In this document: positions 23,543 to 35,504 of the stretch, in pieces
Layout: each line of letters begins with the position of its first letter
How positions within the stretch are numbered: position 1 is the stretch's first letter
Assembly: GCA_035708525.1 (NCBI GenBank)
Contig: DASSSH010000026.1
Location: 478-64,477 of the forward strand
Reading direction: 5' to 3'
DNA from: Candidatus Methylomirabilota bacterium
Lineage (GTDB): Bacteria > Methylomirabilota > Methylomirabilia > Rokubacteriales > CSP1-6
Length of the DNA stretch: 64,000 nt
Notes under the pieces: generated by a model
Seen by the model: only the letters and a program-made list of their open reading frames with translations
Told to the model about the DNA's origin: nothing
Databases searched by the model: none
Position numbers and translations under genes: made by a program

Positions 23543-23923
23543 ATGATGACCATCGTGACTCACACCGAGGTGAAAGATGGGGCGGAACGCCGGTGGGACG
23601 CGGTGATGCGCGAGCGTATGATCGCCGCGAAGGCGCAGCCGGGGTGGATTGGCGGACAGCTGCTTCGGTCAGCCGATGAGCCGAACAAGCGCGTAATCGT
23701 CGGCACATGGAGGGCTCGCGCCGACTGGGAGAAGTGGCACAAGGATCCCCGGTTCGCCGAGACCCGCCAGGAGCTCGACGAGCTGGTGACCGGACCCGCC
23801 GAGCACTGGTGGCACGAGGTGGTGCTCGATGTCAGAAAGGCGGGAGTGAAAGCGGCTCCGCCTGCGGCCAAATCGAAAGGCAAGCGCTCCGCGAAGCGCA
23901 AGGCGAGATATACGGGCCGGTAA
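23543..23923 (+). CDS. antibiotic-biosynthesis-monooxygenase (ABM) domain protein with a Lys-rich tail
   Basis: GGGGGAGGAG RBS. MMTIVTHTEVKDG...VIVGTWRARADWEKWH. The upstream part of ORF 22646..23923 is antisense to the transketolase gene. Confidence 0.75.
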   Translation: MMTIVTHTEVKDGAERRWDAVMRERMIAAKAQPGWIGGQLLRSADEPNKRVIVGTWRARADWEKWHKDPRFAETRQELDELVTGPAEHWWHEVVLDVRKAGVKAAPPAAKSKGKRSAKRKARYTGR

Positions 23924-23973
23924 ATCTTACCCGCCATGCCGGTACTTCTTTCCGGCGCCGGAGGACTGTCTCC

Positions 23974-24345
23974 ATGAGGATCACCACTGAATCACGGATC
24001 AGCGACATCCTCCAGCGGTACCCGAGCACGGGGCCCGTGTTCATCCAGAGCGGACGCTTGTACGTGAACCGGCCGGGCGAGCTCTACGCGCGGTTCCCTG
24101 AGCTCTCGGTGGAGGAGTTCGCCAGGCAGAACGGGATCGACCTGTCCTCGCTGCTCAGAGAACTCGACGCCCTCGCGGGATCCGAGGAGGCGGCATGGAG
24201 CGGTCGCGCTCCGCGGGCCGTCGAGGAAGCCCGCGGCGACTTCTCGTTGACCCTGGGCTATACCGGCAGCTATCGGCCTGGCGAGGACTCGGCTCCCCAG
24301 AGAGTCTCGGTGGTCGCGACGCAGTCCGCCCGCGGTCCCGAGTAG
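23974..24345 (+). CDS. DUF1858-like domain protein
   Basis: MRITTESRISDILQRYPSTGPVFIQSG...SVEEFARQNGIDLSSLLRELD resembles DUF1858 N-terminal domains. Confidence 0.6.
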   Translation: MRITTESRISDILQRYPSTGPVFIQSGRLYVNRPGELYARFPELSVEEFARQNGIDLSSLLRELDALAGSEEAAWSGRAPRAVEEARGDFSLTLGYTGSYRPGEDSAPQRVSVVATQSARGPE

Positions 24346-24380
24346 CCGACGAAGCGAGCGGGCGAGAGGAGGGCGACGAC

Positions 24381-24698
24381 ATGGTGATGGTGACGATGCG
24401 AGCGAAGGAGGCGCTGGTACGCATTCGGGCATCGGCGAACGTGAACGACCCGGACATCGGGCTGCGATTGGAGGCCGCGAACGCCGGCTTCGGGCTGTTT
24501 CCGGACCGCGGGAAGCCGGGCGATCAGATCGTCGAGCACGACGGCGAGAAGATCTTGCTCATCGACGATAAACTGTCCGAAGCCCTTACAGGAGCCCGGA
24601 TCGACTGCAAGCGGGCCGGGGACGAGATCCAGCTCGTGATCGGCCGAGCCGAGGACTCCCCGTCACCGGCCAGCAACGGCGGGCCGGGGGCCGCATAA
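24381..24698 (+). CDS. HesB/IscA-fold-like small protein lacking the Cys triad
   Basis: The pattern MVTMRAKEALVRIRA...GLRLEAA..GFGLFPD..KPGDQIVEHDGEKILLIDDKLSEALTGARIDC resembles HesB-like proteins. A GAGGAGGG RBS is present. Confidence 0.55.
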   Translation: MVMVTMRAKEALVRIRASANVNDPDIGLRLEAANAGFGLFPDRGKPGDQIVEHDGEKILLIDDKLSEALTGARIDCKRAGDEIQLVIGRAEDSPSPASNGGPGAA

Positions 24699-24786
24699 TC
24701 GGGTCGACCCTCACGCCCTGAGTGCTTCGCTCCTCGCCCCAGAATCCCGGGTGGCGCGCCGGCGCGTCCAGACGGTATGATCAGAT

Positions 24787-25104
24787 ATGGGCGCGTCCGG
24801 TCCGGCAGCGGCCTCTGATCCCCTCGCGAAGGCTATCGAGCTCTTGGCCGAGGGAGCATGGCAGCCGGCCCACGACCTCGTCCAGCGCGAGAAGTCCCCG
24901 CTGGCCGCGTGGCTCCACGGCATCGCGCATACCGTCGAGGGCGATCTCGAGAATGCGCGGTACTGGTACCGCAGAGCGGACCGCGCCTTTCCTGGGCGAG
25001 ATGCCCTGGAACGCGAGATCGCGGCGGCCCGAGACGCGCTGCGGGACCGGAGCCATCCGGAACGGTGTGAGGGCTTTCCCGGGCCCGACGCAAGACGGCC
25101 ATGA
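24787..25104 (+). CDS. conserved hypothetical protein
   Basis: AHDLVQ...AAWLHGIAHTVEGDLENARYWYRRADR is a recurrent small-protein motif. Codon bias looks coding. Confidence 0.55.
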   Translation: MGASGPAAASDPLAKAIELLAEGAWQPAHDLVQREKSPLAAWLHGIAHTVEGDLENARYWYRRADRAFPGRDALEREIAAARDALRDRSHPERCEGFPGPDARRP

Positions 25105-25152
25105 CGTCGTCTGGGCCGCCCGCTCGTGACTCCAACACAGGAGGGTTCAGAC

Positions 25153-26034
25153 GTGGCGCTTTCACGGCGTAGCCTTTTCCTGCTCCTGCCCGCGCTCGCC
25201 CAGCTCCCCGCGTCCCTGCTCGCGGCCGCCGCGGCCCATGCCACCGGCGGCCCGGGCGATCCACCCGCGCCGCTCCCCGAGGCGAAGGGCCATGACGTCG
25301 CCCAGCGCACCGTGATCGTCAACGCGGACGACTTCGGTGAGAGCGTGGGCGTCAACCGCGGCATCATCGAGGCCCACGAGCGCGGGGTCGTCACGAGCGC
25401 GAGCCTCATGGTCGGCCGGCCGGGCACCGTCGCGGCCGTGGCCCTGGCGCGTCAGCGTCCGGATCTGAGCCTGGGGCTCCACGTCAATCTCGACGGCATC
25501 GGTCTCGCCCTGATCGGACAGGAGCGTCTGGACGTCCTCGGCCGGGAGATCGAGCGGCAGTTCAAGATGTTCACTGACCTGACCGGCAGCTTGCCGACCC
25601 ATCTCGACTCCCATCATCACGTGCACCGGCAGCTGAACGTCGCGCGCCTCTTCCTCACCCTCAGCCAGCGTCACGGGATCCCGCTCCGCGGGTTCTCCGA
25701 TGTGGTCTATCTCGGTGGGTTCTACGCGCAGTGGGATTTCGGCAAGTTCGACCGGAGGCACATCAGCGTCGAGTATCTGATCACCCTGTTCGGAAAGGCG
25801 GCGCCGGGCTTCACCGAGATCGGTTGCCATCCGGGCTACACAGACTTCGTTGCTGACGCGGCCTACAGCTGGCAGCGCGAGGTCGAGCTGAATACGCTCA
25901 CGGATCCCCGCGCCAAGGCGAGCCTCTTGGCCCTGGGGATTCGGCTCGTGAACTACCGTGACTACGGGTCCACGGTGGGCGTGACGGCTGCCCAGGCCTC
26001 CGTGCCGGGCTGCCAGTCGACCATGACCCGCTGA
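25153..26034 (+). CDS. ChbG/YdjC/HpnK-family carbohydrate deacetylase with a Tat-type signal
   Basis: GTG 25153 after an AGGAGGG RBS. SRRSLFLLLPALA (twin-Arg), VIVNADDFGESVGVNRGIIEAHERGVVTSASLMV, LGLHVNL. Confidence 0.82.
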   Translation: MALSRRSLFLLLPALAQLPASLLAAAAAHATGGPGDPPAPLPEAKGHDVAQRTVIVNADDFGESVGVNRGIIEAHERGVVTSASLMVGRPGTVAAVALARQRPDLSLGLHVNLDGIGLALIGQERLDVLGREIERQFKMFTDLTGSLPTHLDSHHHVHRQLNVARLFLTLSQRHGIPLRGFSDVVYLGGFYAQWDFGKFDRRHISVEYLITLFGKAAPGFTEIGCHPGYTDFVADAAYSWQREVELNTLTDPRAKASLLALGIRLVNYRDYGSTVGVTAAQASVPGCQSTMTR

Positions 26035-26105
26035 GCCGGCTCGTGGAAGGGAATATGGCCCGCGCCGGTTCGTGTGTCGAGTCCTGGATCACCAGGTTCC
26101 CGCGG

Positions 26106-27260
26106 TTACATCACTTGATCTAGTAAGCGGGTGAGCACCTTCTTCGAGTCCAGATACTCCTCGGCGATCCGCCGGGCAGAGCGGGAGTGGCGGTCGTAAT
26201 TGGCGGCAATCCGATCTAGCGCTTCCGCCGCCTCGTCGACGGACCGGAAACCGAACAGGCCCTCGCCGACCGGCAACCACCGCTCGAACCCGCTGGGCTG
26301 CGTCACCACCGGGCGGCCGCTGGCCAGATAGCACGAGCTTCGGTCGCTGAACCATCCGCTGGGCAGGCTGCGATAGATCTCCTTGACCACGGTGAACTCC
26401 CCCGCCGACGCCCGGATGAACTGGGCAAATGCATGACAGGACATGGTTACCGGCTCAGGGTCGATGCACCTCCAGCCGCGGGATTCGAAGCGCGACCGCA
26501 CGTCGCCGGGCATGGTCTGCATGCCGATCGTCATCGTCCAGCGGGAGGCGCGACGGGGCAGGTCGATGACCTTCATCCATTCGACCCCTTTACTGGACAG
26601 ATATCGCCTGCCTTCGAACTCCACGTGGCGGTCGGTCGCGTGCTCCCACTTGCCGACGGTCGTAAAGTCGCGCGAGATCGCCGGCACCACGGGCCAATGC
26701 GGGAGGCAGACCGGCTGACAGGTTGGAACCCAGTCGATCCCGTGAGTGGGGATCGAACACTCGCTCGTTCCGATCAATCTCCCAAAGGTCGCGGCCCGAT
26801 CGAACTGCCGGTAGTAGTCGAGAAACTCCGTGTCATCCTGCATCCGAAGTTGCGTGAACGCTGGATCCGTGTCGATCACCGCTGCCCGCCGGGGCCGGGG
26901 TCGGTCCGGTCGCACCGCCGTCACACCGCTGACGCAGAGGAGCAGGTCGGCTCGACGGAGCAGATCGTGAAGCTCCGCCCGGGTCAGCCCATAATATTCA
27001 CCCCGGGATTGCGCGTAATAGCAGTAGCGCAGCGCCAGGCCGTGCTCCCGGAGGGTCGTCTCCAGGTACTCGATTCCGTAGGTCGGATCGGCGTCGCATG
27101 TCCGCGTGGCAGGGTTATAGGGGACGGCGTCGTCTCCGGAATCCTCCAGGAACCAGACCTCGTGCCCCAGTTCGTGCAGGCCGAGCAGGTAGTTCAGATG
27201 ATGCCAAGTCATTCCGCCGAGCGGGAAGGCGACGATGTATCCGCCGACGACAATGGTCAT
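26106..27260 (-). CDS. CgeB-like GT-B glycosyltransferase-like protein, paralogue A
   Basis: N-terminus IVVGGYIVAFPLGGMTWHHLNYLLGLHELGHEVWFLEDSG. C-terminus GWFSDRSSCYLASGRPVVTQPSGF...EAAEALDRIAANYDRHSRSARRIA (Glyco_trans_1_2-like). Confidence 0.78.
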   Translation of the reverse strand: MTIVVGGYIVAFPLGGMTWHHLNYLLGLHELGHEVWFLEDSGDDAVPYNPATRTCDADPTYGIEYLETTLREHGLALRYCYYAQSRGEYYGLTRAELHDLLRRADLLLCVSGVTAVRPDRPRPRRAAVIDTDPAFTQLRMQDDTEFLDYYRQFDRAATFGRLIGTSECSIPTHGIDWVPTCQPVCLPHWPVVPAISRDFTTVGKWEHATDRHVEFEGRRYLSSKGVEWMKVIDLPRRASRWTMTIGMQTMPGDVRSRFESRGWRCIDPEPVTMSCHAFAQFIRASAGEFTVVKEIYRSLPSGWFSDRSSCYLASGRPVVTQPSGFERWLPVGEGLFGFRSVDEAAEALDRIAANYDRHSRSARRIAEEYLDSKKVLTRLLDQVM

Positions 27261-27291
27261 GAGACGCCGGACCCTCCGCCGTGTTCTCCAC

Positions 27292-28446
27292 TCAACCTGC
27301 GAGCGCGGCCTCGACGAGGCGTTCGAGCACCTTGCGCGCGTCGAAATACTGGTGCGCGATCTCACGCGCCGCGCGGGCGTGGGCGTCATAATTCGCCTCG
27401 ACCTCGCGGATGTCGGCGACCGCCTCGTCCGGATTGGAGAAAGAGAGTACCCCGCGCCCGGTCGGGATCACCGCGTCGAAACCCGTGTCCTCGACCACGA
27501 CCGGCCTACCGGCTGCCAGGTAGCACGCGGATCGGCAGGAAAACCAGCCCGACTTACCTACGACATAGCCGTTCTTCGCGACGCTCCATTCGGCCTTCGA
27601 GGCTGAAAGATAGTGTCGGTAGGAGTCGAGGTCGGGGCACACCGTGTCCGGGTCGGCGAGGCGCCAGCCCTTGTGACGCAGGAGATCGTACGGCGTCTTG
27701 CGCGTCTTTCCGAGGTTCACGGCGATCTCGAGCTCGGTCGGCTTCACCCGTGCCGGCAGGTCGATGAAGCGCTCGAACTCGATGTCCTTCTGGCCATAAC
27801 GCACGCCCTCGTGGACGATCGGCCGCGCCGTGGTCCAGTTCATGACGGTGGTGAACACCTCGCGGCGCTCGTCGATGGCTGGCCATTCGTCGAGCAGGAT
27901 CGGCTGGCGCGTCGGGATCCACGCATACTGCGTCGGTGGCGTGTTACCAGGCAGCGCCTCGCCAAAGCTGAAATGCACATCGTGCGCGACCATCAGCGAG
28001 GCGAGGCTCGTCTCGCCGCGCGCGAGCTTCACCTGGGTGAACACGGGATCGCTGTCGATATAGGCGAGCCGACGCACCGAGCGGTACTTCGCCGGGGCGG
28101 CCAGCGTTCCCGAAATGTTGAGCAGGAGGTCGGCGGTCTCGATGACCTCCTTGCGGCTCGCGTCCGACAGCCCGAACCACTGCGACCCGTGCGGGAAGCA
28201 ATAGGCCCAGCGGCTCCCCAGCCCAAAGCGATCCATCAACTGCTGCAGATAGCGAACGTTGTAGTCGCATATCTTGCTGATGCCGCCTTCCTCCGGGTTG
28301 TAGGGCCAGATGCCCGTGTCCTCGACGTAGTAGGCGTCGTAGCCGAGCCGCGCGAGCCCTGCGACATATTGCACGTAGTCCCAGGCGACGCCACCCAGGG
28401 GATACTGCGCGATCAGCCCGGAGACGATGATCCGCGGGCGGGGCAT
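27292..28446 (-). CDS. CgeB-like GT-B glycosyltransferase-like protein, paralogue B
   Basis: IIVSGLIAQYPLGGVAWDYVQYVAGLARLGYDAYYVEDTG ... GWFSCRSACYLAAGRPVVVEDTGF. Same length as paralogue A. Confidence 0.82.
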   Translation of the reverse strand: MPRPRIIVSGLIAQYPLGGVAWDYVQYVAGLARLGYDAYYVEDTGIWPYNPEEGGISKICDYNVRYLQQLMDRFGLGSRWAYCFPHGSQWFGLSDASRKEVIETADLLLNISGTLAAPAKYRSVRRLAYIDSDPVFTQVKLARGETSLASLMVAHDVHFSFGEALPGNTPPTQYAWIPTRQPILLDEWPAIDERREVFTTVMNWTTARPIVHEGVRYGQKDIEFERFIDLPARVKPTELEIAVNLGKTRKTPYDLLRHKGWRLADPDTVCPDLDSYRHYLSASKAEWSVAKNGYVVGKSGWFSCRSACYLAAGRPVVVEDTGFDAVIPTGRGVLSFSNPDEAVADIREVEANYDAHARAAREIAHQYFDARKVLERLVEAALAG

Positions 28447-29090
28447 CAGGATTGGGGCGAGTCCATCGTGGCGTGACAGCGCGCAACTGGGGGAAGACTG
28501 CGTCGGGTTACCGAGGGGTCCCCTTTCTCACTTCCCCGTGACGGATCGCGGGTCGGCGCCGGCTGCTCGTGGAAGCCGTAGAGGCGCCAGACGGAGCCTT
28601 CGCGCCGGGCCACTTCCGGCTCGCGCTCCCACCAGAGAAACGTCACCCATCTCTTCACGATTGGCAGACGGCCGGAGACCTCTCCGGTCGTGTAGACCCG
28701 CGCGGCGCCGTCCACCATGTCCACCGCGTCGATGGTGACCCGGGCGCGCACGGCCTCGTACAACCCGAAGATTCCCAGGAGCTGCTCGCGGATCAGCGCC
28801 TTGGTCAGCAGCCCGCTCCGGTATTGATCCGAGACGTAGGCGAGGACGCCGGCCGCATCGCGAGCCTCGAAGCGCTCTCGGGCCCGGGCCAGGGTGGCTT
28901 GGAGCTCCTGAACCGTCTGCGCGGAAGCGGCCGTGAAGCCCGGGGCGGCGGCGGCCGGCGGAGGTGGCTGCGCCGCACGCGCCACGGCCGTCCAGGACGC
29001 CTCCGCGAGAGCGAGCGTCAGGATGAGCGCGAGGGCAATCTGGGCGCGGCGGTCAGAGGCCGGCCTCGCGGCACAGCTCCGCGAGCACAT
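28446..29090 (-). CDS. secreted NTF2/SnoaL-like (DUF4440-like) protein
   Basis: Signal-like IALALILTLALAEA, then FEARDAAGVLAYVSDQY...ARVYTTGEVSG...WRLYGF. The junctions overlap both flanking GT-like genes. The exact start is uncertain. Confidence 0.55.
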   Translation of the reverse strand: MCSRSCAARPASDRRAQIALALILTLALAEASWTAVARAAQPPPPAAAAPGFTAASAQTVQELQATLARARERFEARDAAGVLAYVSDQYRSGLLTKALIREQLLGIFGLYEAVRARVTIDAVDMVDGAARVYTTGEVSGRLPIVKRWVTFLWWEREPEVARREGSVWRLYGFHEQPAPTRDPSRGSEKGDPSVTRRSLPPVARCHATMDSPQS

Positions 29091-30213
29091 GGTCCGAGCC
29101 GAAGTACTCCGCCGCGACCTCGCGTGCCGCGCGGCACTGGTCGGCGTAGTCGAGATTGATCTCGTCGATGGCCGCAGCCGCCTCCTCGCACGTCGAGAAC
29201 GCGAAGAGCCCGCGACCCGTCGGGATGAACTTGCTGAAACCGGTCTCCTGGGTGACCACCGGCTTGCCGGCGGCCAGGTAGCAGACGCTGCGATCGCTGA
29301 ACCAGCCGCAGTGCGTACGCGCTACCAGATCCTTCGCGACCGTAAACTCGCCCCGGGAGCCGTAGATGTGCGCCTGGTACGTGGCGGTGTCGCGGGATTT
29401 CTCGAAAGGATCCGCGAGTCGCCAGCCGCGACCGCGCAGGAGCCGATCCGTGTCAGCATCCGTCTCGATGGCCAGCTCCAGCGGCTGTGGGGTCAGGCTC
29501 GGGAGGTTCATGAATCGCAGGAAGTTGACATGCTTGGACCAGGAGTATGTCTCTCCCGCGAAATGGATGTCCTTTCCGACGTTCTTCCAAGTGCCGACCG
29601 TGGTGAACGCGGCGGCCGAGGGATCGAAGCGCGGCTCCCAGAGGTCGAGCACGACGGGCGGCCGGGTCGCTCTCCAGTGGAGCTCGCCCAGGGGAATCGG
29701 GCAGTCGGGCCCACCCAGGTTCTCGCCGTACGTGAAGTGGTGGGTGTGAGCCGAGAGCGCGGCCCGGGCCCGCTGGTTGTTCTGGGCCAGGAGGATCTGG
29801 TCGTGCACGGGGTCGGTCTGCACGTAGATGCGGATGGGGCAGCGCAGGTGCTCCTCGCCCAGGCGGCTGGCGCCGCACACGTTGACCAGCGCGTCGGCCT
29901 CGCGGTAAAGCCGCTCGAGCTGCTCGCGGGGCAGGCCGTAACAGCGGCCACTGGCCCCATCCCGGTACACCCAGCGATCGGCGAGCCCGAACCGCTCCAT
30001 GGTCCGACGGAGGAATTCGACGCTGTAGGCACAGTCCTCGACCACGCTCTGGAGCCTCGGATCGTAGGGCGGCGCGGCCGAGTCCTCGACGTAGTACACG
30101 TCGTGACCCAGGCGGCTCAAGCCGACCAGATGGTGGACCGCCTGCCAGCCGATTCCCCCCATCGGGTACTGCCCCGCGAGATGGAGGACCAGGATCCGCT
30201 TACGGGACGGCAA
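29053..30213 (-). CDS. CgeB-like GT-B glycosyltransferase-like protein, paralogue C
   Basis: ILVLHLAGQYPMGGIGWQAVHHLVGLSRLGHDVYYVEDSA ... GWFSDRSVCYLAAGKPVVTQETGF...EEAAAAIDEINLDYADQCRAAREVA. Confidence 0.82.
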   Translation of the reverse strand: MPSRKRILVLHLAGQYPMGGIGWQAVHHLVGLSRLGHDVYYVEDSAAPPYDPRLQSVVEDCAYSVEFLRRTMERFGLADRWVYRDGASGRCYGLPREQLERLYREADALVNVCGASRLGEEHLRCPIRIYVQTDPVHDQILLAQNNQRARAALSAHTHHFTYGENLGGPDCPIPLGELHWRATRPPVVLDLWEPRFDPSAAAFTTVGTWKNVGKDIHFAGETYSWSKHVNFLRFMNLPSLTPQPLELAIETDADTDRLLRGRGWRLADPFEKSRDTATYQAHIYGSRGEFTVAKDLVARTHCGWFSDRSVCYLAAGKPVVTQETGFSKFIPTGRGLFAFSTCEEAAAAIDEINLDYADQCRAAREVAAEYFGSDHVLAELCREAGL

Positions 30214-31984
30214 GGGGGCTCTCCTCCGGGACGCCGCCCTGCAGCCGGTAGAGGGCCGCGAAGGTGCCCCGGCCCTCCATGAGGGCTTCGAAGCCGCCTT
30301 GCTCCACGATCCGGCCGTCCCGCAGGACCACGATGAGGTCGGCCCGCCGCGCCGTGGAGAGCCGGTGAGCGATGATGAAGGTCGTGCGCCCCGCCGTCAG
30401 CCGCTCGAGCCCCTGCATGACGAGCGCCTCGGTCTCGGCGTCGAGGGCTGAGGTGGGCTCGTCCAGGATCAGGATCGGCGAGTCGCGGAGGAGGGCGCGC
30501 GCGATGGTGATCCGCTGCTTCTCGCCCTCCGACAGCGTGACGCCTTGCTCCCCGACCACGGTGTGGTATCCCCGGGGCAACCGGCTGATCATCCCATCGA
30601 TGCGGGCCAGCCGGGCGGCGGCCACGATCTCGTCGGGCCGCGCGCCCGGGCGCCCGAACGCGATGTTGTCGCCCAGCGTGGCCGGGAAGACGAGCGGCGG
30701 CTGGAGCACCATGGCGATCTGGCGACGCAGCGAGGCAAGCTGGTATTCCCGCACGTCGACGCCGTCCACGAGGAGCCGGCCCGCCGTGCAGTCGTAGAAG
30801 CGCGGGAGGAGACTCAGCAGGGTGGACTTGCCGGCGCCCGTCGGGCCGACGATGGCCACCTTTTGCCCCGCCCGGACACGAAGGGTCACGCCGTTCAGCA
30901 CGGGCTGGCCCCGCGTGTACTCGAAGGCGACGTCCTCCCACGCGACCTCGCCCCGGACGCCCTTCGGAACGGTGCGCGGACCATCCGCGATGTCCCGCTC
31001 CACGTCCAGCAGGTCGAAGACGCGCCGCACGCCCACCTTGGACCCCTGGGCGAGCCCGTAGGTCTGGAACATGCTGTTGATGGGACCGTAGAGCGAAGCC
31101 AGATAGGAGACGAAGATCACCAGCGATCCGACGCTCAGCGAGCCGTCCAGGACGTGGCGCGCCCCCACCCAGACGACGGCAGCGGTGCCGAGCGCGATCA
31201 CCACGTTGATCACGCACGAGTAGGAGGTCTGCAGCGTGTAGAGCCGCAGGCCTGCCGCCAGGCTGTGGCGGTTGGCGGTCATGAACCGGCTGTGCTCGTC
31301 GTCCTCGCGCGTGAAGGCCTGGATCACCCGCATCGTGGACATGGCCTGCTGGACGACGGCGTACATCTCGCTCTCGCGCTCGCGCGCGTGCCCCGCCACT
31401 CGCGTGATCCGGCCGTTGAGCCGCGCGATCGCCGCGAACAGCGCCGGGCACACGGCGAGCGCGAGGAGCGTGAGCTTCCAGTCGAGGTGGAGCATGATCG
31501 CGCCCATTCCCGCCAGGAGGACCAGCGCCGTCGCGGCCGGGAAGAGGCAGTTCATGGTGAGGCTCTGCAGCGCGAAGGTGTCGGCGGTGACCCGATAGAG
31601 CAGGTCGCCCACCTGTGCGCGGCTGTGGAAGGCGAGGGAGAGCCGGTGGAGGTGGCCGTACAGATCGCTCCGCAGGTCGCTCACCATTCGCTGCCCGACG
31701 CGGATCGTGGTGTAGTTGTTCAGCACGGTCAGCGCGCCCAGCGTGGCGTAGATGAGCACCAGCGCCACGCACGCCGCGAGCAGCAAGGCCTCGCGGGACC
31801 ATCTGGCCGGCCACCCCCACGGAGCCGGCTGTCCGCCCAGCACCGAGTCGATGATGACCTTGAGCGGCCAGGGCTTGAGCAGCTCACAGCCGGCGATGAG
31901 CAGGACCTGGCCGAGGGCCCAGAGCAAGGTGAGGCGATGCGGCCGGAGATAGCCGAGGACGCGGCCCGCGACCCCGCCGCTCAC
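30200..31984 (-). CDS. ABC exporter, fused permease/ATPase (MsbA-type)
   Basis: The GTG start overlaps the upstream stop (GTGA at 31981-31984). Six-TM domain, Walker A GPTGAGKST, signature LSEGEKQR, Walker B ILILDEPTS. The upstream part of ORF 30200..33817 is out-of-frame overlap with the synthase gene (GC artefact). Confidence 0.9.
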   Translation of the reverse strand: MSGGVAGRVLGYLRPHRLTLLWALGQVLLIAGCELLKPWPLKVIIDSVLGGQPAPWGWPARWSREALLLAACVALVLIYATLGALTVLNNYTTIRVGQRMVSDLRSDLYGHLHRLSLAFHSRAQVGDLLYRVTADTFALQSLTMNCLFPAATALVLLAGMGAIMLHLDWKLTLLALAVCPALFAAIARLNGRITRVAGHARERESEMYAVVQQAMSTMRVIQAFTREDDEHSRFMTANRHSLAAGLRLYTLQTSYSCVINVVIALGTAAVVWVGARHVLDGSLSVGSLVIFVSYLASLYGPINSMFQTYGLAQGSKVGVRRVFDLLDVERDIADGPRTVPKGVRGEVAWEDVAFEYTRGQPVLNGVTLRVRAGQKVAIVGPTGAGKSTLLSLLPRFYDCTAGRLLVDGVDVREYQLASLRRQIAMVLQPPLVFPATLGDNIAFGRPGARPDEIVAAARLARIDGMISRLPRGYHTVVGEQGVTLSEGEKQRITIARALLRDSPILILDEPTSALDAETEALVMQGLERLTAGRTTFIIAHRLSTARRADLIVVLRDGRIVEQGGFEALMEGRGTFAALYRLQGGVPEESPLAVP

Positions 31985-34560
31985 TTCGTCTCCGGCGCCC
32001 GCGCCTGAAGCGGCGGCGCGTAATGGAGCCGGGCCCGGCGCGCCACCGCCTGAAGCGAGCGGTGCAGCGTCCGGCCGAGATTGAGCCCTTCGCGCGCGAA
32101 AGCCAGCCCCCCGACCGCGGCCACGCCGAGGGCGGCCGCGGCCGCGAGCGGCGAGCCGAGCGTCACGGCCAGAGTGCCCAGCAGCAATGCTCCGGCGCCG
32201 ACCAGCCGGGTGAGCAGGGAGGTCCGTAGCGCGCACTTGACGCGCATGACCCGGCGGCCCGCGCAGTGATACTCGGTAGCCACCTTGACACGAGCACGCG
32301 ACCAGAACCCTCCGTACACCTGGAGATCCCACTCGCTCCATCCCTGATCGACGAGGACGAAGTACTGCCGGGCCGTGACGGCCTCTCGCAGGCCGTGCAG
32401 GAGGGTTTCCTTCTCGAGGCCGTTTTCGGTCCAGTAGGAGACGGCGAACGCCCGCTCGCGCCAGGATACCGGCAGGCTGCGGGCCGGGCGATCCTCCTCC
32501 ACGGGCTTCGCCGCCGAGATGCCACGCGCCAGCCAGCGATAGCGCTCGAAGCAGCGCAGCAGTGGTCCCACATAGGTGAGCAGCGCGATCAGCAGGCGGC
32601 CCCGAAGATTGTCCGCCCGCGGGTCCACGCGGGCGCGGAGCGCAGCACCCAGGCAGCAGCCCCACGTCAGCAGCAGCGGGACGGCGCCGAACCAGGCCCA
32701 GCCGCCCCGGACGAACGCGTAGGCGAGGAGGGCGGCAGCCGCCACGCTCCACTCGAGCGTGAAGGGCAGGTACGAGTAGAAGCTCGACGGGGGGTGGTAG
32801 AGCGTCTGGAACAGGCCGCGTCCGAACACGCCGCCGTAGATCACCGGGCGCCGCAGCGAGAACAGCGAGGTGAACAGGGAGTAGATCCCGCCGTAGATCC
32901 GGCCGCGCCAGCGTGAGTAGCCGAGGGCGTTGAAGCGCTGCGGGTGCCGGAAGTAGAGCAGGCCCTCGGCCTTGCCGTAGCCTCGCTGCTGCCCGATATA
33001 GGCCTTGACGGTGTTGCGCCGGAAGTGCCAGACCATGGCGGCAGGGCTGAAGGCGATGCGGTAGCCGCGCTCCTGGAGCCGCCAGCAGAGGTCCACGTCG
33101 TCGCCGGCCGCGCGGTAGATCGGATCGAACCCGCCGAGCTCCTCGAGCACCTCCCGGCGGAAGGCCATGTTGCAGCCGGGAATGTGCTCGGCCTCTTCGT
33201 CGTTCAGCAGCACGTGCAGCGGCCCGCCCGGAGAGGCGGCGACGCAGGTGGCGACCAGGGAGTCCTCCGGCGGCGGCAGATTGGGCCCGCCGACCGCCAC
33301 CCCGCCCGAGGAGAGGAAGGTGGCCACCAGATAGTGCAGCCAGTCGGGATCCACGATGCAGTCGGAGTCGGTGAAGGCGACGATCTCGCCGGTGGACGCG
33401 GCGATGCCGACGTTCCGGGCGGCGCTCAGGCCCTTGTTCTCCTGGTGGATCACGTGGATGCCTTCGTACTGGTCGGCGATCTCTCCCGTGCGGTCGGTGG
33501 AGCCGTCGTCGACCACCACGACCTCGTAGGCGGGGTAGCGGAGCTCCCGGAGCGAATCGAGGCAGGCGGCCATGGTGCTCTCGGCGTTGTAGGCGCAGAC
33601 CACGACGGAGACCTTCGGGTACTCCACGAGGGCGGGCAGCGCGTCGGTCGCGTACCAGCGCCGGACCGCCCGGTAGGCGGCCTTCGTCCGTCGCTCGCGG
33701 TCGACCAGCCCGAAGCCCCAGTCGCGCACCTCCTCGCCGCCCGTGAACCACTCGTCGGTGAGCGCGAAGACATAGGTGCCCGCCGCGCCCATCTCGAGCG
33801 CCGTGCGCACCTGCCACGACAGCGTCTCGGCCTGCTCCTGCTCGCCGTGACGGAACGAGTCCATGCCGAACTCCGTGAGGACGAGGGGCCGGTCCCCCGC
33901 CAGCGTGTGCAAACGGTAGAGGTACCGGCGCAGGTCGGCCTCGCGGTGGAGGTACACGTTGAAAGCCAGGAAGTCCGTGAAGTCGGTCTCCAGATACTCG
34001 GTGGAGGGGAAGTTGGCGTAGCCGACGAGCGACTCGGGATCGATGCCTCGCACGACGTCCACCAGCTCGCGGAGGAAGCCGGCGACCCGCGGCGCGCCAT
34101 ACCAGCGGACGATGTCAGGGGGGATCTCATTGCCCACGAGATACGCGGCCAGCGCGGGATGGTCCGCGCAGCTGGTCACCGCCTCCGCGACCGTGCGACG
34201 GATGGACCGGGTCAGCGGCTTCGAATCGAGAAAGCAGACGTGCTCGGCCCACGGAAGCCCGGCCAGCACCCGCAAGTCCCGCTCCGCCGCCAGGTCGAGC
34301 AGCCAGCGGGGGGGAACGGTGAAGGTCCGGAAGGTGTTCGCCCCGAGTCCGACCATGAGGGAGAGGTCCCGCTTGACGGTCTCGCGGTCGGGAAACTGGG
34401 TGCCGAAGCCATCGGGCGCGAAAGGCCCGTAGGTGACGCCTTTGAGGAAGACCTTCTCGACTCCGGAGAAGAAGAACTTGCCGCGCGCCTCGAGCTTCCT
34501 ACCGTCTTGCAGAAGCCCACGGGGGCTCGGGGGCGGGACGGCGATCGACCGAGACTGCAC
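31981..34560 (-). CDS. fusion protein: clan GH-A TIM-barrel glycoside hydrolase domain, family 2 glycosyltransferase and a C-terminal multi-TM domain (synthase-like)
   Basis: The N-terminus has GNEIP and LTEFG (candidate acid/base and nucleophile Glu). The GT2 part has VSVVVCAYNAE, VVVVDDGSTD, FTDSD and GDDVDLCWR. The motif QQRGYG is followed by several TM helices. Confidence 0.85.
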   Translation of the reverse strand: MQSRSIAVPPPSPRGLLQDGRKLEARGKFFFSGVEKVFLKGVTYGPFAPDGFGTQFPDRETVKRDLSLMVGLGANTFRTFTVPPRWLLDLAAERDLRVLAGLPWAEHVCFLDSKPLTRSIRRTVAEAVTSCADHPALAAYLVGNEIPPDIVRWYGAPRVAGFLRELVDVVRGIDPESLVGYANFPSTEYLETDFTDFLAFNVYLHREADLRRYLYRLHTLAGDRPLVLTEFGMDSFRHGEQEQAETLSWQVRTALEMGAAGTYVFALTDEWFTGGEEVRDWGFGLVDRERRTKAAYRAVRRWYATDALPALVEYPKVSVVVCAYNAESTMAACLDSLRELRYPAYEVVVVDDGSTDRTGEIADQYEGIHVIHQENKGLSAARNVGIAASTGEIVAFTDSDCIVDPDWLHYLVATFLSSGGVAVGGPNLPPPEDSLVATCVAASPGGPLHVLLNDEEAEHIPGCNMAFRREVLEELGGFDPIYRAAGDDVDLCWRLQERGYRIAFSPAAMVWHFRRNTVKAYIGQQRGYGKAEGLLYFRHPQRFNALGYSRWRGRIYGGIYSLFTSLFSLRRPVIYGGVFGRGLFQTLYHPPSSFYSYLPFTLEWSVAAAALLAYAFVRGGWAWFGAVPLLLTWGCCLGAALRARVDPRADNLRGRLLIALLTYVGPLLRCFERYRWLARGISAAKPVEEDRPARSLPVSWRERAFAVSYWTENGLEKETLLHGLREAVTARQYFVLVDQGWSEWDLQVYGGFWSRARVKVATEYHCAGRRVMRVKCALRTSLLTRLVGAGALLLGTLAVTLGSPLAAAAALGVAAVGGLAFAREGLNLGRTLHRSLQAVARRARLHYAPPLQARAPETK

Positions 34561-34918
34561 TAACCGAGACCTCCTTGGGACGGTTGCGCTTCAGACGGGG
34601 GAGGGGTGGCCCCCCGCGGTGACTTCGCTCTCCCCGCCGACCCCCGACGGGTCAGCCCGGCCGACAGGCTCGTGGCCAAGCAGAGGCAACCGCTGTGCCA
34701 GTCCCGGCCGAAGCCTGGCGCCCGTCGAAACCCCTGACTTACAGACACTAATGAGGCCATCACGACCCGAGGGCCGCCCGTCGGCGTCAATCGGCGATAT
34801 GGTGCGTACCTTTTTTACACGTTCGCAGGCAAAAGTTACCGTCGACGCTGCGTGCTGCCGTCGGTGGCGCGATCGGGTCCGGGCTACGTGGCCGGGGTCC
34901 GAGGCCGGGAGCCTTATC

Positions 34919-35107
34919 TTGACAGCTCACCGTCCCTACGGTGCGGGGTATTACCCGTCGGCGTACGCCTATCCGACGCGGGAGGTCCAGTACCCGCACG
35001 GGCGCTACGAGCTGTACGGCGACGGCTAGCGAACGCCCTATCAGTGGGTGTGGATCCCGAACCCGCCGCCTCCGTCCGCGGCTCCGCCGCCTCCGCCGGA
35101 CCGCTAG
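34919..35107 (+). pseudogene. relic or short paralogue of the YPxGRYELxGDG-TPxxWVWIP Pro-rich protein, interrupted by an in-frame TAG (35027-35029)
   Basis: …VQYPHGRYELYGDG-[TAG]-RTPYQWVWIPNPPPPSAAPPPPPDR* aligns with YPNGRYELRGDGVTTPFRWVWIPKPPPGPP of gene 20108..20698. No convincing signal peptide lies upstream. Confidence 0.3.
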
Positions 35108-35406
35108 CGGCGGGGTTTGCGCCTCCGCGCGAGCATCGTCTGCATCAGCCGCTTGGCCTTGGCGAGCTCGGCGCGGCGGGCGGGTGTGAGCTGACGGCCG
35201 GCGCGGTTGATGAAGAACGTCAGCATGCGCAGCCCCGAGGAGACCCCTCGAGGGCTCACGCGCTTGGAGGCGAGCGTTCTCGCGATCGTGCGGGCATCCC
35301 GGGTGAACAGCCCCTTGGGCGGGTACGTCGAGACCGTGGTGACCGTGTGGCTCCAGTAGCGAGTCTTCCTCCGAGCTGATTTCCGGCGGTGTCGCCGTGT
35401 CGTCAT
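35104..35406 (-). CDS. DUF3175 domain-containing protein
   Basis: WSHTVTTVSTYPPKGLFTRDARTIARTLAS...SGLRMLTFFINRAGRQL...LAKAKRLM. Confidence 0.8.
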   Translation of the reverse strand: MTTRRHRRKSARRKTRYWSHTVTTVSTYPPKGLFTRDARTIARTLASKRVSPRGVSSGLRMLTFFINRAGRQLTPARRAELAKAKRLMQTMLARRRKPRR

Positions 35407-35504
35407 CGCGGGTCGCCTCCTCGCCCTCTTTCTGCAAGCCGGGCGGCGTGGGGCAGCTCGACGAGGCGATCAGGCGGCGAGCGACGGAGGCCCCACCCCG
35501 GTCG

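Follow-up and report, generated by a model that had tools for sequence, protein, structure and literature searches.

In the Nod factor pathway, the oligosaccharide made by NodC, a membrane glycosyltransferase of family 2 (GT2), is retained in the cytoplasm and decorated there before the ATP-binding cassette (ABC) transporter NodIJ exports it. Cgs, the enzyme of cyclic glucan synthesis, reaches about 2,800 amino acids (aa). Its soluble and catalytic domains all lie in the cytoplasm, a transglycosylating cyclase among them, and the cyclic glucan is exported by the ABC transporter Cgt (PMC10901819; PMC10834661). In pseudomonad NdvB, a cyclic β-1,3-glucan synthase, the glycoside hydrolase (GH) domain, of family GH17, is predicted to be periplasmic, with a transmembrane region between it and the GT2 domain (PMC10237404). 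Here we analyse an operon within a 64,000-nucleotide (nt) stretch of a Candidatus Methylomirabilota genome (assembly GCA_035708525.1; contig DASSSH010000026.1, positions 478–64,477; the whole stretch is hereafter denoted the window), which encodes a GH–GT2 fusion (the synthase), an ABC exporter, and three related glycosyltransferase-like (GT-like) proteins denoted GT-A, GT-B and GT-C. We propose, with a probability of roughly 0.55, that a glycan is assembled at the cytoplasmic face of the membrane, processed, decorated, and then exported by the ABC pump.

Organisation of the operon

The GC content lies between 65 and 71% along the window and is 68% for the genome. Six open reading frames (ORFs), read from the sequence, run on the minus strand from 34560 down to 26106, and one plus-strand gene, ydjC, converges on them. 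In order, the six encode the synthase, the exporter, GT-C, a small predicted secreted protein, GT-B and GT-A. The synthase gene starts with GTG, has an AAGGAGG Shine–Dalgarno sequence in front of it, and its stop codon overlaps the start of the ABC gene in the GTGA at 31981–31984. The ABC gene and GT-C overlap by 14 nt, GT-C and the small ORF by 38 nt, and the small ORF and GT-B by 1 nt (TGATG); GT-B and GT-A are separated by a 31-nt gap, which holds a GGAGGG Shine–Dalgarno sequence. The GC content at third codon positions (GC3) is 0.80–0.94 for all of the genes, with the small ORF at 0.83. A preliminary description of this DNA had reported these six chained minus-strand genes, and each of its overlaps, together with the gap, was recovered when the coordinates and junctions were re-read. 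Judged from sequence, the six genes form a genuine operon.

A fusion of glycoside hydrolase and GT2 domains

The synthase (859 aa; 31981–34560, minus strand) was delineated by Pfam matches, an AlphaFold2 (AF2) model (mean predicted local distance difference test score, pLDDT, 80.6), and an alignment, A3, of 24 synthase orthologues from the loci of relatives. Residues 24–303 (33652–34491, minus strand) form a TIM barrel of clan GH-A, in which the putative acid/base E145 lies in an NE(I) motif and the putative nucleophile E230 in T-E-F-G; both glutamates are invariant across the 24 orthologues. Foldseek places the GH157 enzyme LaGH157 (9g4n/9fz9) at the top for the barrel (E 8e-15), followed by GH2 glucuronidases, and a profile search against the PDB likewise matches 9fz9 (E 3.8e-18), such that the closest solved GH structure is that of a GH157 endo-β-1,3-glucanase. 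Pfam matches to the barrel are weak (GH2_C, E 3e-4 to 0.006; GH72, E 0.008), and no GH17 match is listed among the Pfam and structure matches of this domain.

The GT2 catalytic domain occupies residues 317–540 (32941–33612, minus strand) and is matched by Pfam PF00535 over residues 318–476 (E 4e-38). It carries D352, D398-x-D400, G486-D-D488 and Q524-Q-x-G-Y528, all of which are invariant in A3; the last, which takes the place of the QxxRW-type motif, reads QQxGY, with tyrosine replacing tryptophan, throughout the synthase family. In structure, the GT2 part is matched by PcManGT (6yv7) and, more weakly, by BcsA (4p00).

A membrane region, assigned by hydropathy and the secondary structure of the AF2 model, follows at residues 598–842 (32035–32769, minus strand). 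It consists of two hydrophobic helical hairpins (residues ~602–642 and 782–842) with a small α/β domain between them (residues 704–780). Sequence, hydropathy and the AF2 model reveal no signal peptide, no hydrophobic segment before residue 598, and none between the GH and GT2 domains, and both domains are therefore predicted to be cytoplasmic, i.e. on the nucleotide-sugar side; we infer the same location for the arginine-rich connecting loops and the C-terminal tail. Because the model has only two hairpins, both after the GT2 domain, formation of a BcsA-type channel by the synthase alone is unlikely, and a separate exporter would be needed.

The ABC exporter

The second gene (594 aa; 30200–31984, minus strand) encodes an ABCB-type (MsbA/NdvA-like) half-transporter, as judged by Pfam matches to PF00664 (E 3.6e-44) and PF00005 (E 5e-32); the GT2 and ABC exporter domains initially assigned by inspection are thus both supported by Pfam and NCBIfam, together with the weak GH2_C match and both parts of the exporter (ABC_membrane and ABC_tran). 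The exporter scores alike for MsbA, NdvA-type exporters, HepA and others, and falls below every NCBIfam equivalog cut-off, for example MsbA (439.5 against 602 bits), the NdvA-type glucan exporter PRK13657 (387.8 against 733 bits) and PglK (162.6 against 1000 bits). Its PDB neighbours are generic ABCB exporters. Assignment to a flippase family or to a glucan-exporter family was considered and is not supported by these scores.

In a Granulosicoccaceae locus (L030:8646-12160; L numbers denote relatives' loci) two ABC half-transporter genes lie in tandem behind GT-like genes, which suggests a heterodimeric variant of the exporter.

Fold and motifs of the GT-like proteins

GT-C (386 aa; 29053–30213), GT-B (384 aa; 27292–28446) and GT-A (384 aa; 26106–27260), all on the minus strand, are 37–40% identical to each other, with GT-C at 40% and GT-A at 37% to GT-B; they share the N- and C-terminal motifs first ascribed to them. 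Family searches gave little. PF13524 is matched by GT-B at 25.4 bits and by GT-A at 20.4 bits (gathering score 25), and GT-C does not match; NCBIfam returned nothing for any of them. The Pfam scans listed no family over their N-terminal halves, so the CgeB-type N-terminal domain, PF12996, was not seen. None of the three matches PF00534, PF13692 or PF13439 at E ≤ 0.01; a canonical GT4 enzyme encoded in a relative's cluster matches the GT4 Pfam families at 4.5e-35.

The AF2 model of GT-B, built from a 43-sequence alignment, has high confidence (pLDDT 94.7; predicted template modelling score, pTM, 0.94) and reveals a GT-B fold, with two Rossmann-like domains. The top 50 PDB matches in Foldseek are nearly all glycosyltransferases, mostly of GT4 type, with a probability of 1.00 to many GT4 structures (E 2e-11 to 4e-7; TM-score about 0.6); these neighbours include the methylmannose-polysaccharide mannosyltransferase, PglA, tll1591, BshA, MshA, PimA and HepE. 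Identity to solved GT4 enzymes is only 10–15%, and a sequence search of GT-B against the PDB returned nothing significant. In profile–profile comparison (hhalign) with canonical GT4s from relatives' clusters the alignment is confined to the end of the C-terminal domain, with LAAGRPVV set against MACGTPVL; counting back from this register, both glutamate positions of the GT4 EX7E motif correspond to invariant G300 and C308. A profile search against the PDB gave a weak C-terminal match (E 0.003, ~65 residues) to the streptococcal glucosyltransferase Gtf3 (9hu9, 3qkw), in which the aligned stretch, STYLAAGLPV, has serine at the position of the second EX7E glutamate of GT4.

Across the sampled subfamilies 39 positions are invariant, and all are retained in all three window paralogues; they include charged residues in both domains (E42, D43, D133, K220, E286, K291 and R305). 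The model and these residues suggest that GT-A, GT-B and GT-C are probably active transferases of a divergent GT-B-fold family; they are not strict GT4 members. The earlier view that they belong to an uncharacterised family of this fold, to which a CgeB-type C-terminal domain (PF13524) offers the only Pfam link, is in keeping with both the weak match and the model, and the paralogues did not fall into any well-characterised glycosyltransferase family.

Three old subfamilies in one operon

The GT-like family is large: GT-B alone has more than 4,600 homologues in 90% clusters, and HMMER recovered 3,616 family clusters at 50% identity (E ≤ 0.001). Orthologues of GT-B occur at 60–73% identity across phyla, those at 63–73% being annotated from Nitrospinae, Alphaproteobacteria, Binatia and Desulfoferrobacter; a plasmid collection gave no match to GT-B. 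In a maximum-likelihood tree of 130 family members drawn from the fetched loci, GT-B lies in a tight clade of 42 rows (support 100) spanning more than 10 phyla, where it is nearest to metagenome-assembled genomes of Alphaproteobacteria (70–73%) rather than to the copy from Rokubacteria (66%). GT-C belongs to a separate clade of 10 rows (support 98) from Binatia, Acidobacteriota, Chloroflexota and Rhodothermota. GT-A, which sits on a long, orphan-like branch in this tree, yielded 4,166 homologues at E ≤ 1e-30 in a dedicated search, the best at 63–82% identity and many, at 63–70%, annotated from Planctomycetota; its orthologues are located in a synthase–ABC–GT–GT cluster (L106) and in an unlinked pair of GT-like genes (L104).

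Each of the window paralogues has orthologues of 46–73% identity in other phyla. The three genes had been described as tandem paralogues, and a lineage-specific triplication was considered for them; the separate clades of GT-B and GT-C, and the close relatives that GT-A has of its own, rule this out, and each paralogue falls in a distinct, old subfamily. As far as the tree and identities indicate, three old and widely spread subfamilies are joined in one operon.

The operon is also a mosaic, since the synthase and exporter have different nearest relatives from GT-B. The closest synthase and exporter (75 and 77% identity) are found on a Rokubacteria contig (L008) whose GT-B is only 66% identical, and the closest GT-B (73%) adjoins a synthase of 46% identity. 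More generally, GT-B is 60–67% identical in loci whose adjacent synthase is 43–47% identical; this very high conservation suggests that GT-B performs a tightly constrained step.

Conservation of the gene set

Comparison of the window proteins with 84 loci (tblastn) reveals that the order synthase–ABC–(GT-like), with one to six GT-like genes, is kept in more than 30 of them, belonging to at least 10 phyla. Carriers are mostly environmental bacteria, from the Methylomirabilota, Binatia, Acidobacteriota, Chloroflexota, Verrucomicrobiota, Bacteroidota, Planctomycetota, Nitrospirota and several proteobacterial lineages. In a phylum sample of 101 genomes, 20 of which have the synthase, a GT-like gene is present in 15 of 19 synthase-positive genomes (the window's own genome was left out of the count) and in 1 of 20 synthase-negative genomes (Fisher p = 2e-6); in the positive genomes it mostly lies on the same contig, less than 10 kb away. 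Where a GT-B-type gene is unlinked, a full-length synthase is encoded elsewhere in all six genomes tested, including Desulfoferrobacter, Verrucomicrobiota and Planctomycetota. Desulfoferrobacter suflitae DRH4, which is in culture, has both an orthologue of GT-B and a homologue of the synthase. In three representatives the ABC exporter is fused to a C-terminal GT-like domain; other fusions join GT-like domains to GT2, methyltransferase, sulfotransferase, GT4 and APH kinase domains. The shared order, the co-occurrence and the fusions together bear out the earlier suggestion that the genes are conserved as one module.

The clusters of relatives also contain APH-type kinases, S-adenosylmethionine (SAM)-dependent methyltransferases (some NodS-like), sulfotransferases, polysaccharide pyruvyl transferases, NAD-dependent sugar (NDP-sugar) epimerases/dehydratases, a NodB-type deacetylase, and canonical GT4s; by their predicted families, these accessory genes make up the set expected for a decorated glycan. 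In clusters of the closest type (L008-L013) the ABC gene is followed by a gene for a methyltransferase of 241–283 aa, which the window does not have, and only then by GT-like genes.

The slot directly behind the ABC gene is filled in many relatives by an APH-type kinase or a SAM methyltransferase (L004:8910-9965, L020:4662-8756, L008:6818-7549), and the window operon has neither. The genes in this slot resemble WbdD, a kinase/methyltransferase that acts as a chain terminator, marking O-antigen chains for ABC export. One Acidobacteriota (Acidiferrales) contig (L034:4420-21188) carries two complete synthase–ABC modules of different lineages within 21 kb; their synthases are 43 and 60% identical to that of the window, and four GT-like genes lie between the modules.

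A YdjC-family deacetylase with a Tat-type signal

The gene that converges on the operon end, ydjC (25153–26034, plus strand), is separated from the end of GT-A by 71 nt. It starts with GTG at 25153, preceded by AGGAGG as Shine–Dalgarno sequence, and its product matches PF04794 (E 1.2e-44; 153.6 bits against a gathering score of 29.7) without reaching the NCBIfam equivalog cut-offs for ChbG or HpnK. The N-terminus, M-A-L-S-R-R-S-L-F-L-L-L, is that of a twin-arginine translocation (Tat)-type signal (SRRSLFLLL...AHA; coded in 25153–25330), in accordance with the Tat-exported YdjC proposed previously. It is the only YdjC gene of its genome.

A link to the cluster, also suggested before, is apparent in relatives: ydjC lies directly behind the GT-C orthologue in five loci (L007, L010-L013), in Binatia, Acidobacteria and delta-type clusters the GT-C subfamily is accompanied by YdjC, and in L088 a 387-aa protein, which lies outside the tree, is encoded between a GT-B orthologue and YdjC. 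The cluster-linked YdjC proteins of L007, L010-L012 and L088 have no signal peptide, and in the window's lineage the deacetylation step thus appears, from these N-termini, to have shifted out of the cytoplasm into the periplasm.

Proposed pathway and alternatives

In the proposed pathway, the GT2 domain would build a chain, probably β-linked, from nucleotide sugar at the inner membrane face, and the fused GH-A barrel, likewise cytoplasmic, would process it, the chain being trimmed, released, branched or, through transglycosylation, cyclised. GT-A, GT-B and GT-C would then add side or capping residues, and a homodimer of the ABCB half-transporter would carry the finished product across the inner membrane. 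Tat-exported YdjC could de-N-acetylate the product in the periplasm; the signal-less YdjC proteins of relatives would do so on the cytoplasmic side. The analysis itself gives the identity of the domains, their conserved catalytic residues, a predicted topology, the layout of the operon, and the co-occurrence and fusion of its genes; which sugars are donated, in what order the steps follow, and whether the product is soluble, cyclic or lipid-linked are inferred.

Several observations weigh against this pathway. The processivity of the synthase is uncertain, given that its QxxRW motif reads QQxGY. The EX7E glutamates are absent from the GT-like proteins, which makes their catalytic competence and donor type uncertain. 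By sequence the exporter is as close to lipid flippases (MsbA) as it is to exporters of glucans. The promoter and terminator scan was uninformative at 68% GC and identified none, and literature searches on PF13524, GH157 and GH–GT2/ABC combinations found no experimental study of the system or of any of its components, the synthase and the GT-like family included.

The likeness of the exporter to flippases is also a starting point for an alternative in which GT2 transfers sugar to a lipid of the membrane (polyprenyl phosphate, a hopanoid, a ceramide-like lipid or diacylglycerol), the GT-like proteins extend the glycan on the inner leaflet, and the exporter flips the glycoconjugate as MsbA or PglK would. 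MsbA-type flippases are indeed its best NCBIfam matches, GT2 weakly matches the GT21 ceramide glucosyltransferase and HpnI/HpnB, YdjC matches HpnK, and two lipid-acting enzymes, PimA and DGD2, are among the structures nearest to GT-B. However, all such family matches are far below their cut-offs, the operon encodes no priming phosphoglycosyltransferase, the GDD and QQxGY motifs of GT2 are of the polymerising type, and a conserved, catalytically intact GH domain in the cytoplasm would have no obvious role; we consider a lipid-linked product unlikely. Another reading of the missing glutamates is that GT-A, GT-B and GT-C are not glycosyltransferases but non-catalytic scaffolds or adaptors of a synthase–exporter complex, or transferases of something other than sugar. 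Replacement of both EX7E positions by invariant glycine and cysteine would fit, as would the weak 'glycosyl transferase-like' C-terminal domain that is all Pfam offers, and fusion to the exporter would suit an adaptor as well. The 39 positions held invariant over distant subfamilies, charged residues in both domains among them, argue otherwise, as do the Foldseek probability of 1.00 to many active GT4 enzymes and the C-terminal resemblance (E 0.003) to Gtf3, a deposited glucosyltransferase with serine in place of the second glutamate; two to six paralogues per cluster, moreover, would fit stepwise addition of sugars, and neither a structural role nor transfer of a non-sugar group seems probable to us. 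It is very improbable that the cluster adds sugar to a small molecule or peptide, much as mycofactocin MftF or SunS does, with export by a bacteriocin-type ABC transporter. The best NCBIfam match of GT2 is MftF (2.4e-55), with a weak match to SunS, and the exporter matches NHLP bacteriocin exporters (1e-93). For MftF, however, GT2 scores 188 bits where 280 bits are required; neither the operon nor its surroundings encode a precursor peptide, a radical-SAM enzyme or a peptidase domain; and the accessory genes of relatives are typical of polysaccharide decoration.

The small secreted protein and flanking regions

The 214-aa predicted secreted protein is encoded at 28446–29090 (minus strand), between GT-C and GT-B, by the only open frame at this site, and is supported by its GC3. 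It has no Pfam or PDB-profile match, and the NTF2-like label given to it at first sight found no family match in those searches. A search of 30 related genomes found homologues with 46–56% identity in 12 of them. None of the five examined adjoins synthase or GT-like genes; since these homologues lie elsewhere in the genome, the small protein is regarded as a lineage-specific insert and was rejected as a conserved member of the module. The homologues end in ...WRLYGYQQ followed by a stop codon. The window copy does not have that stop and is about 40 codons longer (28446–28570), with the result that its own stop overlaps the GT-B start; the extension looks like a secondary reading-frame fusion that followed insertion.

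Upstream of the synthase, about 540 nt (34561–35103, minus strand) contain no ORF with coding-type GC3 and are presumed to be the promoter and leader. No match to the sigma-70 consensus was found in this leader. An Rfam scan of it gave no match and its predicted RNA folding does not exceed that of shuffled sequences (z = 0.43); the riboswitch or structured leader considered for this position was thus not found. Beyond it, an ORF at 35104–35469 (minus strand; 121 codons, GC3 0.83) encodes a very basic protein. On the other side of the operon, the ~1.5 kb between a transketolase-like gene and ydjC (23680–25150) contain no ORF whose GC3 is as strongly biased as that of the genes around it (best 0.71–0.80); a sub-threshold Rfam match to the small RNA P36 in this region (E 0.33) is probably due to chance.

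Comparison with known systems

Individual parts of the operon resemble several described systems. The GT-like proteins share with GT4 enzymes (PimA, BshA, MshA, PglA and HepE) the GT-B fold, a glycine-rich loop after the first strand, and a C-terminal A-x-G-x-P-V-V motif, but differ from them in having G300 and C308 at the EX7E positions, no match to PF00534 or PF13439, and 10–15% identity. With CgeB (PF13524) and Gtf3 they share a C-terminal half that weakly matches PF13524 and the motif (A/S)-x-Y-L-A-A-G-x-P-V, which is also present in Gtf3; GT-B alone among the paralogues, however, attains the gathering score of PF13524, and no N-terminal Pfam family was seen. Channel-forming GT2 enzymes (BcsA, HAS and chitin synthase) are marked by D, DxD, (T/G)ED and QxxRW motifs; the synthase has D352, D398-x-D400 and GDD at 486–488, and reads QQxGY for QxxRW. 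Its two predicted hairpins do not provide a multi-helix transmembrane channel around the active site.

NdvB, of the 'Orphan' BcsA-like type, also combines a clan GH-A barrel, akin to enzymes that act on β-1,3-glucan, and a GT2 domain in one polypeptide of similar size (PMC10237404). In the window, however, the barrel is nearest to GH157 and GH2, with no GH17 listed, no transmembrane segment lies between the domains, both are predicted to be cytoplasmic, and the system would need an ABC exporter. The proposed order, in which a glycan is made and decorated in the cytoplasm before export, is that of the Nod pathway, and clusters of relatives contain NodS-like methyltransferases, deacetylases and sulfotransferases. 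The synthase scores only 45.4 bits against the 550-bit cut-off of the NodC equivalog (TIGR04242), the exporter is of ABCB type and NodIJ of ABC-2 type, and the window operon encodes no NodA-like acyltransferase.

It is possible, and we suggest it only tentatively, that the GH–GT2 fusion, the ABCB exporter and the EX7E-less GT-B-fold family constitute a horizontally moving glycan route, spread over many phyla and so far undescribed, in which the GH-A domain is a transglycosylase and the GT-like proteins are a new family that adds residues or a cap recognised by the exporter. Within such a route the GH-A domain may be a cyclase, a brancher or a length-setter. Should the mechanism proposed above be correct, a common glycan of the envelope or periplasm, so far invisible, would be identified in uncultured soil phyla, and a new glycosyltransferase family without the canonical GT4 catalytic motif would be defined. 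What is new on the GT-like partners is their fold, the loss of EX7E, their origin from at least three old subfamilies, and the mosaic nature of the operon; new, too, are co-occurrence at genome level, which extends to unlinked genes, the fusions with the exporter, and the YdjC variant with a Tat signal.

The pairing of a synthase with a half-transporter and triplicated GT-like proteins had been thought not to match the canonical Wzx/Wzy, classical ABC or synthase pathways, but a cytoplasmic synthase with an ABCB exporter has a precedent in Cgs/Cgt. There, as proposed here, the enzyme is anchored in the membrane, its GT and glycan-processing domains are cytoplasmic, and the product passes to a separate ABCB half-transporter (PMC10901819; PMC10834661). 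The half-transporter is dedicated in both systems; in the window the ABC gene overlaps that of the synthase, and this position is kept in relatives. The components differ: the very large Cgs has GT84, GH189 cyclase and GH94 phosphorylase domains with six transmembrane helices (PMC10901819), whereas the window synthase comprises GT2 and a GH157/GH2-like clan GH-A barrel in 859 aa, with none of GT84, GH189 or GH94, and Cgs is not known to depend on any partner family of GT-B enzymes. By analogy, Cgs/Cgt would be the nearest working precedent, the likeness being one of mode of action and not of membership, and the operon, if the proposed route is correct, would represent a third architecture for the logic of cytoplasmic synthase, processing domain and ABC exporter, which has so far been described mainly for cyclic glucans.

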